Shown one piece after another: positions 9,430 to 12,228 of a stretch of 16,232 nucleotides of DNA. Source of the stretch: a virus (taxonomy: Duplodnaviria > Heunggongvirae > Uroviricota > Caudoviricetes); the IMG/VR virus record IMGVR_UViG_2802429241_000006, positions 1-16,232 of that record; one strand, given 5' to 3'. Within the stretch, counting starts at the first letter, position 1, and the number at the start of each line of letters is the position of its first letter. The position numbers and the translations under genes are program-made. The notes beneath the pieces are model-generated. The model ran no database searches. It was not told where the DNA came from and saw nothing but the letters and a program-made list of their open reading frames with translations.

Positions 9430-12228
9430 ATGTGGGGAAGTGAAAACAAACAAAATCTGGACGTACTGGATCCTGTGCAGTTGGCGCGTATCAAAGCGGT
9501 ACACCGGGGGTTCCTTTACCAGCATCTTTACGCTGTAGGCTGCTTACTTTTGGCGCAGAGGGCTGCTATGGACTCAGTAACTGTCGAGCTTGATGAGGAT
9601 ATTGAGCTGAAATCCAAACAGGAATGTCTCTACATTCAGGTTAAAACCCGTTCAAAACCTATTATGCCCAACGATGTGTCAGGGGCTCTTGAGCGATTTG
9701 TAAAGCTCAGAAATGAGCATACTTCGGCAAACCGCGAAGGGGTGGCTTCTTTTGTGATTATTGTAAACCAGGCGCCTGGACCGCTGCTTCAGAAGATGAT
9801 TGACGATAAAAAGCTTCCTTCTGATGTTCTCATTGTCTGGCCCCAGTCGACAGCTGGACGTCACCCGGCACTTCCGCCCGCATGGAGTACTCTGGCTGAT
9901 GCGGCCACATGGTGTATCGCAGAAGCAGAAAAGCTGAAATTTTCACTATTGTCCCCAGAATCCTTGATTTGGAAGTTAGCAGGGTTGGTTCAGCTTGCCG
10001 CCACCGGAGGCGATACCAATGGGCAACATACGTTTTTCACGGAAGAACTTACTGAACTATTTGAACAGTTGATCGTTCAGCTACAGGACTTTCCTGCGCC
10101 ACCAGCACTGTACCGTCCACAAAACGAAGAACCTTCTCTCACATCTGGTGAGCGGATCCGTATCCTTTGTGGGCTCTCAGGTGCAGGCAAGACAGCTTGG
10201 GCCGCACAGGCCGCATTACACTCCACTGCACTTTGTGCTTATTACGACACCGGTGATCTTCCCGGTCCAGCTCTGGCCAGTACGCTGGTGCGCGAGATGG
10301 TTGCTAGATTTACAGCCCGTGACCAAAACGGTTTGCGCAGGATTTTGCTCCCCGGTGCCAGTGGTTTTGAGGCTCTTAGGAGTTTTGATACCTACCTGAA
10401 AGAGCACGGTACCACCTTGGTGCTGGTTCTGGATAACGCCCATCGTGTGCCTGCGGAAAATCTACGGGATGTTCTGAATGCAACTACACATATTCGTTTT
10501 GTGCTGTTGTGCCAGCCTCACGAAAACGTTCGCGAACTGGAGGTCATGACGGGGCTACAGCGCGAGAGCCTGCAGGGATGGAATCTCGATACGGTAGCTG
10601 TCGTTGTAAACGATATCGGAGGATTTGCCACCGCCATGGGATACGAGCAGCTACGGGCTTACACTGGTGGTCTTCCCCTGTATGTAGAGAGCGCCGCAAA
10701 AATCGCCGTTTCTGATTATGAGCGTAGTGTCGATGCTCTGTGTGCTGAACTCCAGCAACAAACCCATACTGCGGAAACCGCCCAAGAAATTATTCTGTCA
10801 CGTGTATTTCAGGGATTTGAATCACTACTTCAGAGCGCGCTGGCATTGTTCAGTCTCTCTGACGTAGGGCTGAGTCGTGAAGAGATTTCTACGCTCCTAA
10901 TCAATTCGCTGAACATTTCACCAAGCAGTGCGGCTTCTTTAATTAGGAAAATGCGCGCTACTGGCACTATTGAAATTTATGGAAACCATACCCTGAAGGT
11001 ACATGATGCTGTCAGGGGGCTAGGACTGCAACATCTGGAACTGATGGATCAGGGGATATCGAACAAAGCGCTACTAGCGCTGAAAGACCTTTTAGTTGAA
11101 AGTCTTCATAATACCCGCAATACAAAACGGTTATCGTTGTTGACTCAACTTTATATTAAGCTCAATGATGTCACGACGTTGATCGAACTCTCAGGCCAAG
11201 AAATGTTTTATGAGATGGGCGTGACGGTCGACATTCTTTCAAGCCTGGAGCGTGCTGCAACATCGGACTTATTGGGACCTGTTCATAAATTCTGGGCATT
11301 GGATGGTCTTGTTTTCGTTGAGCTTAAAGACGGAATATCCGACCAGATTGCTCAGAGGTTAAACATCATGGGAGCTTTACTTGCGGAGCACAAGTTCGGT
11401 TATCAAGAAGAGATGGCCTATGCAATGAAACGAATGTTATTTTCGGCAGAAAGCAATGATGCACGAGCAGTTCAAAAGCTGGCACAGGAAGTCCGCCCCC
11501 AACTCCCAGATGAAGAACATAAACGCATCTTTGACTACAACCATGCTATTGCACTCTGGAGATTAAAAAAACTCAAGGATGCTGAAACATTAAGCTGTAA
11601 TGTTATACAAGGGTACTATTCTTTATTTGGTATCACACCTGCTGATGTCATAGGAAAAAACGCCGACGCATTATGGAAAACTATTAATCATTCCGAAAAT
11701 ATGCAGGAACACTTTAAACATATGGCTGATGCACTGGAGTTGCTGGCCAGAATTCGTGATGCGCAGGGAAAAATGTCACCATTACTGCGTATTCATTCGA
11801 TGAAGTTCTACAATCTGGCCATGGCCCCGGAATCCATGGTCAGGGTGGGCCAAGATCTGGCGGATGAGTTTGTTGCCATAAAGGATTACGACGGTGCCAA
11901 GGAAGTCATGGAGCAACATGTCCTGCCGGTTGTCAATGAGGCAGGTCTAGTACATCGACTGATTCAGGTTCGAAGCCAGTACGCAGTCATATTGGCACTA
12001 TCGGGTCAGCATAAAGCAGCTGATGTCGAAATGCAGCGCCTTGCTCCCTATATCGAAGGCCTCACAGGTGTACAGCGTCAAGAAATCCAAAATCAATCAA
12101 ATTACATCGTACAGCTTGCCCATAAAGCAGCAAAGACTAAATTAACTGAAGTTTTTGGTGCGGTCGGCCGGAATGAACAATGCCCCTGTGGCTCGGGAAT
12201 AAAGTACAAAAAATGTCACGGTGCCTGA
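9430..12228 (+). CDS. Candidate anti-phage STAND-like NTPase, 932 aa: N-terminal PD-(D/E)xK-like nuclease region, central P-loop NTPase, helical C-terminal region, terminal SEC-C-type zinc motif
   Basis: Unambiguous long ORF with AAGGA RBS. Walker A [9 protein letters not shown] at about aa 248-256 and Walker B-like [11 protein letters not shown] about 80 aa later. N-terminus has a GF-x-YQ motif and a D...QxK pattern ([11 protein letters not shown]...LYIQVKT) resembling Cap4/Mrr-type nucleases. Final residues [18 protein letters not shown] match the SEC-C metal-binding motif. About 570 aa of predicted helical sequence follow the NTPase. Flanked by non-coding DNA on both sides. Confidence 0.6.
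   Translation: [932 protein letters not shown]

Follow-up and report, generated by a model that had tools for sequence, protein, structure and literature searches.

A prophage cargo gene encoding a Cap4 nuclease, STAND NTPase, TPR-like and SEC-C protein, a probable Avs-like immune receptor

A single-gene cassette in a variable prophage slot

We analysed a 16,232-nucleotide stretch of the viral record IMGVR_UViG_2802429241_000006 (hereafter called the window). Its genes follow the order of an Escherichia coli lambda-like prophage, namely integrase, exonuclease, DicF/dicB, CI-like repressor, Cro, YdaT, replication initiator, DUF977, the gene for a 932-residue protein, hok/sok, DUF968 and Q (Table 1). 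This integrase-to-Q order bears out the prophage setting proposed in an earlier note on this DNA. A tRNA scan of the window found none. The ORF of the 932-residue protein is real, with ~7e-18 equally long open stretches expected by chance within the window, and the gene is under purifying selection (dN/dS of 0.17-0.24 against three alleles).

Table 1. Features of the cargo cassette and its flanks
Feature	Coordinates (nt)	Strand	Basis
DUF977, end of the prophage replication module (left flank)	8779..9123	+	Pfam PF06163; annotation in L001
Single-gene cargo cassette: 147 nt upstream, ORF, 23 nt downstream	9283..12251	+	Homology breakpoints versus sister prophages
Candidate promoter: -35-like ATGACT (9331-9336), 19-nt spacer, perfect -10 TATAAT (9356-9361)	9331..9361	+	Sequence reading
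Shine-Dalgarno-like AAGGA, 7 nt before the ATG	9418..9422	+	Sequence reading
CDS, 932 aa (Cap4 nuclease, STAND NTPase, TPR sensor, SEC-C)	9430..12228	+	ATG start
Cap4/DUF4297-type PD-(D/E)xK nuclease domain, effector (aa ~25-225)	9502..10104	+	
Catalytic motif E53-x-D55-x-D57-x-E59 ... Q70-x-K72	9586..9645	+	Conserved in relatives
STAND nucleotide-binding domain (aa ~236-385)	10135..10584	+	
Walker A GLSGAGKT (aa 248-255)	10171..10194	+	K254 in 219/219 relatives
Walker B LVLVLD335-N336-AH (aa 330-338)	10417..10443	+	D335 in 219/219 relatives
NOD helical domain and winged-helix domain (aa ~386-540)	10585..11049	+	
GLPL-like motif GGLPL (aa 413-417)	10666-10680	+	P416 invariant in 219 relatives
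MHD-like His-Asp, K-V-H525-D526	10996-11007	+	H525 in 214/219 relatives
TPR-like all-helical sensor (aa ~541-909)	11050..12156	+	
SEC-C/SecA-type metal-binding knuckle (aa 914-931), low-confidence flexible tail	12169..12222	+	Pfam PF02810
hok/sok type I toxin-antitoxin (right flank)	12337..12661	+	Rfam RF01794, 107.7 bits; hokD annotated in L001
sok/leader; hok ORF (right flank)	12337-12511; 12506-12661	+	

The gene is a mobile single-gene cassette of 2.97 kb in a variable slot between DUF977 and hok/sok. In sister prophages that carry other cargo or none, homology ends at 9282 (L011, L014) or 9178 (L012, L013) and returns at 12252 (L011, L014) or at 12312-12318. The equivalent slot of the sister prophage of strain KFu019 holds the three-gene PADLOC system Hp1-Hp2-Hp3. 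This exact single-gene swap agrees with the description of the gene as an isolated moron in the earlier note, which had also given it a promoter of its own. The latter claim fared less evenly. The 147 nt of upstream cassette DNA are AT-rich and contain TATAAT and AAGGA (the 306 nt upstream of the gene have 38% GC), and a promoter belonging to the cassette is plausible. Nevertheless, a sigma-70 consensus scan with spacers of 16-18 nt called none upstream of the ATG, so we only infer the candidate site listed in Table 1.

Domain organization of the 932-residue protein

The protein consists of a Cap4-type PD-(D/E)xK nuclease, a MalT/PH0952-like NBD-HD-WHD core, a TPR-like sensor and a SEC-C knuckle, in that order, and all the motifs that had been read in its ORF beforehand were recovered in place. 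Three domains exceed their own Pfam cut-offs: Cap4_nuclease (aa 25-77, 28.5 bits for a cut-off of 26.2), AAA_22 (aa 239-364, 35.9 bits for 27) and SEC-C (aa 914-931, 38.9 bits for 20.4). We identified >390 homologue clusters and counted residue conservation over 219 full-length relatives. D57, Q70, K254, D335 and P416 are invariant among them, and, as judged from these alignments, the catalytic and nucleotide-binding positions are preserved in the protein and conserved across the family. The AlphaFold2 model has a mean pLDDT of 80.7.

The nuclease motifs read G27-F-L-Y30-Q31 and E53-L-D55-E-D57-I-E59-L ... I-Q70-V-K72. Besides the two invariant positions, D55 is present in 216 relatives, E59 in 212 and K72 in 218. 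The PD-(D/E)xK-like region of the earlier note is a nuclease of the Cap4/DUF4297 type, as the profile searches that it had called for confirmed, and its P-loop NTPase corresponds to the AAA_22 match.

The central part has the features of STAND proteins: a nucleotide-binding domain harbouring Walker A and B motifs, then helical and winged-helix domains with a GxP/GLPL-type motif and a conserved WHD histidine. The TPR-like region provides the C-terminal repeat sensor. The protein thereby joins an N-terminal defence effector to a STAND core, as do Avs proteins in the broad sense. The second acidic residue of the Walker B motif is replaced with Asn (N336) in 209 of the 219 relatives and is Asp in the remaining 10. 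Together with a Gln at a sensor-1-like position, this D-N pair suggests an ATP-binding switch with little hydrolysis and hence one-way activation.

A Foldseek search of the PDB with the AlphaFold2 model returned the STAND and TPR protein PH0952 first (E 6e-13) and SeAvs3 second (E 5e-12), then NLR resistosomes and SAMD9. The NOD is structurally nearest to those of MalT and PH0952. Fold searches also identified as TPR-like the region that had been taken for a helical sensor. It is short, about 370-390 residues, and its closest folds are MalT domain III, PlcR, Rap and NprR, which are small-ligand or peptide receptors. In a distant relative, P0266, a TIR_2-like N-terminus replaces the nuclease while the NOD-TPR-SEC-C body is unchanged; the effector domain is therefore exchangeable on one chassis.

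The SEC-C tail

The terminal residues C918-P-C920-G-S922-G-I-K-Y926-K-K-C929-H930-G follow the CxCx8C[HC] pattern with its conserved Ser and Tyr. The SEC-C assignment of the earlier note is corroborated by the family profile, which matches the SecA zinc domain (1sx0, 1ozb; E 7e-7), and 16 of 21 positions of the tail are identical to the C-terminus of E. coli SecA. The pLDDT falls below 55 beyond residue 910. SEC-C is present in about 79% of the full-length relatives. About 21% lack it. Among such relatives K/R-rich tails occur, and a subclade has a separate, convergently oriented ORF for an accessory protein of ~160-225 residues, for which the window holds no counterpart.

Other immune proteins share this type of tail, as the PADLOC models CBASS E2, E1-E2 and PDC-S12 match that of the 932-residue protein. 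The flexible C-terminal tail of SecA binds SecB, ribosomes and phospholipid, with relief of autoinhibition (10.1101/613315), and the SEC-C domain of YchJ was reported to sense redox state (PMC13377102). We speculate that the tail tethers the protein to a plentiful anionic component of the host, be it SecB, the ribosome or acidic lipid of the membrane, or serves as a metal- or redox-sensitive latch, and, equally speculatively, that it belongs to the sensor chassis and is separate from the effector.

Distribution and genetic environments

In IMG/VR the gene was found in one E. coli prophage lineage only (9 loci, 92-99% identical), and 16 of 5426 complete E. coli genomes carry it; it is therefore not a common phage accessory. 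A species-level scan matched 183 species among 185,579 species genomes, and homologues were found on 54 plasmids. Most family members are located outside phages, in chromosomal islands and on plasmids of Proteobacteria, Sporomusa and others.

The homologues of Vibrio cholerae adjoin Gabija, AbiH, PIN and PDC-S06 genes, and that of Yersinia adjoins Gabija. A Klebsiella plasmid copy lies near genes for a Cap4-like/Avs1b-like giant protein and LeoA-type GTPases, and the Pseudomonas copies are part of a metal-resistance element, with AbiH 60 nt downstream. Across 80 species-level loci, the neighbours that recur are type IIG RM (6 loci), Lamassu (5) and GajB (4). These add up to 15 of 80 loci, compared with a background of 1.5% quoted in PMC13581612 (binomial P 1.5e-12, with related loci counted as independent). 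Immediate neighbours include LmuB, mad2/3, AbiH, GajA, Ppl, PDC-S50 and PDC-S52. The family thus shows the genomic association with defence systems (including MADS) or mobile elements that is typical of Avs proteins. Many loci have no recognizable defence neighbour, and no partner gene is common to all 80 species-level loci, which led us to reject a conserved partner for the whole family.

These defence-island neighbourhoods in unrelated bacteria, together with the TIR-like effector swap, support the anti-phage function that had been proposed from the sequence.

Searches for a known family

PADLOC, NCBIfam and PHROG all lack a model spanning the whole protein. Using PADLOC-DB 2.0.0 at E <= 1, we found matches only in the N-terminal region (LmuA, HamA, DUF4297) and in the SEC-C tail, and none to the Avs models (Avs1-Avs5, AVAST I-V); in the identical library a neighbouring 1922-residue protein matched Avs1b. 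The protein matched no NACHT or bNACHT model in Pfam or PADLOC, and its best structural relatives are of the MalT/PH0952 type, so that on this basis it does not fall in the bNACHT/NACHT clade. Nor does it fit Lamassu, since the likeness to LmuA is confined to the nuclease, the cassette lacks LmuB and no partner is conserved. PDB sequence searches with the family profile, the N-terminal 235 residues or the NTPase region hit the SEC-C tail only, other matches being noise at E > 0.1. Among the viral structures of BFVD, only generic AAA and TPR matches were obtained, and it is therefore not a phage core protein.

In the literature, we found no paper pairing SEC-C with STAND and, in what was searched, no report of phage protection or nuclease activity for any family member. 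Rugutis, a lactococcal protein with an N-terminal SEC-C, is unrelated. Neither the main text of DefensePredictor nor the domain-centric NAR paper mentions SEC-C or Cap4. In the accessible part of the DefensePredictor supplements (PMC13092281), SEC-C is listed only for proteins outside the family, DS-23 among them, and four of the family's accessions do not appear. The suggestion that the protein may be undescribed is consistent with the lack of a full-length model and of a paper on this pairing. A 2026 census of STAND proteins defined 589 clades and 684 sensor clusters and clustered only sensors of at least 400 residues (Lee et al., Nature 2026; PMC13581612). One of the 589 clades may already contain the family, and its sensor of ~370-390 residues may have been excluded from the clustering.

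Proposed function and alternatives

We propose that this prophage cargo gene specifies an Avs-like STAND immune receptor made of one polypeptide. Its most likely role would be to defend the lysogen against other phages through abortive infection, and we give this reading a probability of roughly 0.7. By analogy with SeAvs3 and SeAvs7, the protein would be a closed, ADP-bound monomer with a sequestered nuclease in uninfected cells. Binding of a phage-derived ligand to the TPR sensor would open the NOD, ATP binding would then promote oligomerization, and the assembled Cap4 domains would cut double-stranded DNA indiscriminately.

The same machine might respond to another kind of trigger. Because the sensor is short and has the folds of small-ligand or peptide receptors, unlike the large wrap-around sensors of Avs proteins, the trigger may not be a folded phage protein. 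A short MalT/RRNPP-like TPR pocket would then sense a short peptide or a small molecule rather than envelop a folded structural or replication protein of the phage. Candidates would be a metabolite induced by the phage, a signal derived from nucleotides or a peptide of phage communication. We consider this version unlikely.

Comparably doubtful is the possibility that the SEC-C tail docks to a host factor. The STAND receptor would be anchored to SecB, to the ribosome or to the acidic inner membrane. There it would monitor phage proteins that are still being made or are bound to a chaperone, or it would 'guard' the SecB/ribosome site from phage interference, and the activation latch would in part consist in the tail being released or engaged. 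Bacterial NLR-like proteins have reportedly just been found to use host factors, as with DnaJ and bNACHT25, and this idea would become directly testable with a defence receptor that brings its own docking peptide. If it were true, the tail on the otherwise unrelated defence proteins DS-23, CBASS E2-like proteins and PDC-S12 would mark a shared, unrecognized mode of localizing or gating immunity, and the K/R-rich tails and the ~160-225-residue accessory protein would be alternative answers to the same problem.

A role like that of Lamassu/DdmABC, in which the protein would act against plasmids and other mobile DNA or sense how DNA is structured, would fit the Cap4-type nuclease, which those systems share in the form of LmuA. 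However, the protein has neither an SMC or coiled-coil DNA-sensing partner nor a recognizable DNA-binding sensor domain, its middle part being a STAND NOD rather than an SMC. In addition, it is carried in a prophage slot whose counterpart in a sister prophage holds a three-gene system that matches PADLOC defence models. These features make an anti-plasmid role quite improbable.

A contribution to the lytic programme of the phage itself, through host-DNA degradation or regulation, or an addiction module formed with hok/sok might be envisaged from the early-region position beside hok/sok and from the frequency of nucleases among phage early functions. Nevertheless, with most relatives outside phages, a single lineage in IMG/VR, no structural relatives in BFVD and no PHROG family, and with the hok/sok flank also present in prophages devoid of the gene, we hold both to be very improbable. 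A secretion-linked housekeeping factor associated with SecA/SecB, as the near identity of the tail to the SecB/ribosome-binding domain of SecA might suggest, or a MalT-type transcription regulator, as the NOD and sensor might suggest, is scarcely credible given the sporadic mobile distribution (see the E. coli and species counts above), the defence-type neighbourhoods and the presence of a conserved nuclease in place of an HTH or other DNA-binding output domain.

If the proposed immune receptor is active, it would add to the Avs repertoire a compact, single-gene STAND receptor of 932 residues that is native to E. coli. It would be unusual in three respects: its MalT-like NTPase is apparently built for ATP binding over turnover, the shortness of its sensor suggests a small ligand or a peptide, and its C-terminal tail is nearly the same as the SecB- and ribosome-binding region of SecA. 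In addition, the DUF977-hok interval of Rac/Qin-type prophages emerges as a slot for defence cargo. Should the 2026 census already list the protein under one of its Avs families, its identification would be routine annotation.

Comparison with known systems

In architecture and predicted action the 932-residue protein resembles Avs7, in which a Cap4 nuclease at the N-terminus, a STAND NTPase and a TPR sensor at the C-terminus are likewise joined in one chain, and it is similarly predicted to pass from an autoinhibited monomer to a ligand- and ATP-driven oligomer that cleaves DNA. As described in PMC13581612, SeAvs7 forms tetramers when ligand and ATP bind, it cleaves DNA, it has a conserved His in its ADP pocket, and Avs7 uses the host factor EF-Tu, a precedent for host-factor docking. 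In contrast, the 932-residue protein has no detectable sequence relationship with Avs7 (PADLOC Avs models, PDB sequences), and it differs by its MalT/PH0952-nearest NOD, its much shorter sensor, the D-N Walker B motif and the SEC-C tail; neither SEC-C nor zinc is mentioned in the text of that paper. SeAvs3 (PDB 8dgc), with 2028 residues, has a very large terminase-binding sensor and no SEC-C; it was the second-best Foldseek match in the PDB, with low global TM-scores (0.17 and 0.09).

PH0952 (6mfv) and MalT (8bob, 1hz4) are STAND NTPases of the MalT/MNS type with TPR/SUPR sensors. They are signal-transduction or transcription proteins devoid of nuclease and SEC-C, and the LuxR-type DNA-binding output of MalT is absent from the 932-residue protein.

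LmuA of Lamassu and Cap4 of CBASS share the fold of the effector nuclease and its D...QxK-type active site. They are controlled by the SMC partner LmuB and by a SAVED cyclic-oligonucleotide receptor, respectively, whereas in the 932-residue protein the nuclease is fused to a STAND NTPase.

DS-23 (WP_020231147.1), according to PMC13092281, is a validated single-gene E. coli defence protein that protects against BASEL phages, and it too combines a PD-(D/E)xK-type nuclease with a terminal SEC-C zinc finger. It shows that SEC-C tails occur on working defence nucleases. DS-23 is 719 residues long, and the domain table in the supplement lists the zinc finger only, with no ATPase or STAND domain; its nuclease is Upx/Mrr-like and located mid-protein, and homology to the 932-residue protein is limited to the tail. 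The CxCx8CH knuckle with its conserved Ser and Tyr is also that of SecA, YecA and YchJ, and it is joined here to an immune-type STAND nuclease.

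Domain architecture and fold

The 932-aa protein comprises, in this order, a Cap4-type nuclease, a MalT/PH0952-like module of nucleotide-binding, helical and winged-helix domains (NBD-HD-WHD, hereafter NOD), a TPR-like sensor and a SEC-C knuckle. This four-part reading is based on an AlphaFold2 model, Foldseek searches and sequence matches, and it is backed, together with the motifs, by an alignment of 219 full-length relatives. The model, computed from a 32-sequence family alignment, has a mean pLDDT of 80.7, with low confidence only for residues 1-24, a few loops and the region beyond residue ~910. 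The structure prediction and fold search proposed in the earlier note placed the protein among STAND NTPases: the first Foldseek match in the PDB is PH0952 (6mfv; E 6e-13, target TM 0.60), a STAND NTPase of known crystal structure that has a TPR sensor, and the second is SeAvs3 with bound terminase (8dgc; E 5e-12). Plant NLR resistosomes, SAMD9 and Cdc6 follow, and lower still Cap4 and Hachiman HamA. A sequence search of the PDB yielded no match outside the SEC-C tail. All motifs previously named from the sequence were found in the translation at their expected places, and the nuclease, P-loop NTPase and SEC-C parts proposed with them correspond to Pfam signatures above gathering cut-offs.

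The chance expectation for an open stretch of 932 codons is ~7e-18 at the base composition of the window, and dN/dS values of 0.17-0.24 against alleles 1-7% different in DNA show that the gene evolves under purifying selection. The H525-D526 pair lies where NB-ARC proteins have MHD; roles for the GLPL-like and His-Asp residues are proposed by position and analogy. The Walker B D-N, instead of D-D/E, and the Gln at a sensor-1-like position are unusual departures from the STAND pattern that are fixed in the family, and they suggest a switch able to bind ATP but poor at hydrolysing it.

Features of the gene, its prophage and related loci (window positions unless aa or another locus is indicated)
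Feature	Position	Strand	Evidence or remark
CDS, 932 codons, ATG start	9430-12228	+	sole very long ORF of the window
Cap4-type PD-(D/E)xK nuclease	aa ~25-225		Pfam, fold
Cap4_nuclease	aa 25-77		Pfam, above gathering cut-off
Nuclease motif GFLYQ	aa 27-31		translation
Nuclease motifs ELDEDIEL, IQVK	aa 53-60, 69-72		translation
D55, D57, E59 (nuclease)			216/219, 219/219, 212/219 relatives
Q70, K72 (nuclease)			219/219, 218/219 relatives
MalT/PH0952-like NBD-HD-WHD	aa ~236-540		fold
AAA_22	aa 239-364		Pfam, above gathering cut-off
Walker A GLSGAGKT	aa 248-255		translation; K254 in 219/219 relatives
Walker B	aa 330-338		translation; D335 in 219/219 relatives
D335-N336	10432-10437		Asn in 209/219 relatives
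Q362, sensor-1-like	10513-10515		Gln in 193/219 relatives
P416, GLPL-like motif			219/219 relatives
H525, D526, after winged-helix hairpin			214/219, 209/219 relatives
TPR-like sensor	aa ~541-909		fold
SEC-C knuckle, flexible, C-terminal	aa 914-931		Pfam, above gathering cut-off
SEC-C motif	aa 918-931		translation
Slot flanks	9124-9282 and 12252-12336		DUF977-to-hok interval
hok/sok type I toxin-antitoxin, hokD-type	12337-12661	+	directly downstream of cassette
Terminator-like hairpin	12730-12747		
DicF antisense sRNA	4418-4469	-	Rfam, 76 bits; dicB/ydf region
Q antiterminator	14124-14918	+	DnaJ-type CxxCxGxG zinc-finger region
Slot in E. coli KFu019	L011 7194-10196		three genes
Defence-like proteins, Klebsiella plasmid NZ_CP054968	L004 1252-7020 and 14439-18254	-	within 8 kb of homologue
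Convergent ORF of SEC-C-less members	L077 8737-9414	-	

A single-gene cassette in a prophage cargo slot

The window represents a lambdoid prophage of mosaic, Rac/Qin-like make-up, with the gene order integrase, exonuclease, DicF/dicB, CI-like repressor, Cro, YdaT, replication initiator, DUF977, 932-aa gene, hok/sok, DUF968 and Q. Sister prophages, when compared, place the edges of the cargo at 9282/9283 and 12251/12252, so that the cassette holds only the ORF, 147 nt in front of it and 23 nt behind it, in agreement with the isolated prophage gene described earlier. The promoter of its own that had been attributed to it is less clear: the upstream 147 nt include both a Shine-Dalgarno sequence and a perfect TATAAT, but a promoter scan called no site there. 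The interval from DUF977 to hok serves Rac/Qin-like lambdoid prophages as a slot for exchangeable cargo. In strain KFu019 it harbours genes matching PADLOC Hp1, Hp2 and Hp3, in another strain ea22/DUF551-type genes, and it is almost empty in others (L012-L014 compared); the hok/sok flank is also present in prophages without the gene. Downstream of Q, positions 15000-16232 are AT-rich (35-38% GC); no tRNA genes were found there, and a related prophage (L001) has four after Q.

Of 5426 complete E. coli genomes, 16 carry the full-length gene, which in IMG/VR is limited to this prophage lineage. One IMG/VR prophage allele carries a 1249-bp insertion (L102 9116-10364) after gene nucleotide 1115; the junction shows 4 bp of overlap, and the insertion looks like an IS element.

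Family distribution and neighbourhoods

The family comprises at least 392 clusters (50% identity, E < 1e-30), with most members 920-960 aa long, and matches occur in 183 of 185,579 species genomes, in alpha-, beta- and gamma-Proteobacteria, Desulfobacterota, Sporomusa and one Bifidobacterium MAG, as well as on 54 plasmids. No partner gene common to the family loci was found. Their neighbourhoods are often defence islands, with the order PIN, AbiH, Gabija, family gene, PDC-S06 and integrase in V. cholerae, and Gabija directly adjoining the family gene in Yersinia. Pseudomonas copies (L006-L009), inside a chromate/copper-resistance mobile element, have an AbiH-family gene 60 nt downstream on the same strand. 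The Klebsiella surroundings look like a plasmid defence island, encoding a 1922-aa giant, whose N-terminus is Cap4-like and which weakly matches Avs1b, and two LeoA-type dynamin-like GTPases. Type IIG RM (6), Lamassu (5) and GajB (4) neighbours together account for 15 of 80 loci, against a background of 1.5% as quoted by Lee et al. (PMC13581612), giving a binomial P of 1.5e-12 with loci treated as independent and relatedness ignored. In a set of 129 ORFs directly flanking family genes, recurrent ones are LmuB, mad2/3, AbiH (3/129), GajA, Ppl, PDC-S50 and PDC-S52.

The SEC-C tail

Of the 21 positions in residues 911-931, 16 are identical to the zinc domain of E. coli SecA, the conserved Ser and Tyr among them; ~79% of full-length family members harbour the tail. 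The SecA domain is carried on a flexible tail, interacts with SecB, ribosomes and phospholipid, and lifts autoinhibition when engaged (10.1101/613315); the SecA-like domain of YchJ was reported to be a redox sensor (PMC13377102). Strongly K/R-rich C-termini replace the knuckle in some relatives (P0153, P0244, P0245), hinting that the task of the tail may be polyanion binding. P0266, an 893-aa metagenomic relative, shares the NOD-TPR-SEC-C chassis (30% identity over residues 218-929) but has a TIR_2-like N-terminus (E 1e-4, below the Pfam cut-off) where the Cap4 nuclease would be. The tail accompanies the NOD and sensor rather than the effector.

In a SEC-C-less subclade, a conserved, convergent ORF of ~150-225 aa lies ~85 nt downstream in 16 of 80 loci (L077 and 15 others, including L049-L052, L055, L059-L061, L063, L064, L067 and L068). 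It has no match in Pfam or PADLOC and no counterpart in the window; in family member P0145 a homologous domain is fused at the C-terminus (40% identity, E 2e-33). An accessory or a regulatory role is possible for its product.

SEC-C-like tails repeatedly end unrelated phage and defence protein families, and are found in the PADLOC CBASS E2 and E1-E2 models, PDC-S12 and phrog_18195. EF-Tu for Avs7 and DnaJ for bNACHT25 are the precedents for our conjecture that SEC-C might dock a host factor; it might otherwise act as a latch.

Proposed mechanism and known systems

An Avs-like receptor is the best-supported reading, in keeping with the protein's architecture and intact motifs, the mobility and neighbourhoods of its gene, and the effector swap. 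By analogy with SeAvs3 and SeAvs7 as described by Lee et al. (PMC13581612), the resting protein would be an autoinhibited monomer; a phage-derived ligand would bind the TPR domain, ATP binding would lead to oligomerisation, and the assembled Cap4 domains would cut DNA, aborting infection. A real alternative to a phage protein-type trigger is a peptide or small ligand, since the short sensor resembles MalT domain III and RRNPP receptors.

With respect to the Avs-like reading, the protein fits the structural definition of STAND NTPases and, broadly, of Avs-type defence proteins, with a predicted defence role. The Avs/NACHT architecture suggested in the earlier note holds to that extent; Pfam and PADLOC do not assign the protein to the NACHT type, and PADLOC, also suggested there, gave no match between the protein and its Avs1-5 models, to which the comparison extends. 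The searches of the 2026 census by Lee et al., which describes 589 clades, started from Cap4 and probably picked up the NTPase domain; sensors, however, were clustered there only from 400 aa upwards (PMC13581612). The protein may belong to one of these clades or to one of Avs6-24. In the literature searched, no paper joins SEC-C to a STAND NTPase or names the family accessions. The Avs-like kind is already known, and the interest of the protein lies mainly in a tail of SecA type and in its compact, MalT-like chassis. The protein resembles PH0952 as a STAND NTPase with a TPR sensor, SeAvs7, which has a conserved His in its ADP pocket (PMC13581612), in carrying H525 at a position thought comparable by analogy, SecA in its zinc domain on a flexible tail, and DS-23, a validated single-gene defence nuclease, in its SEC-C-like tail (PMC13092281).
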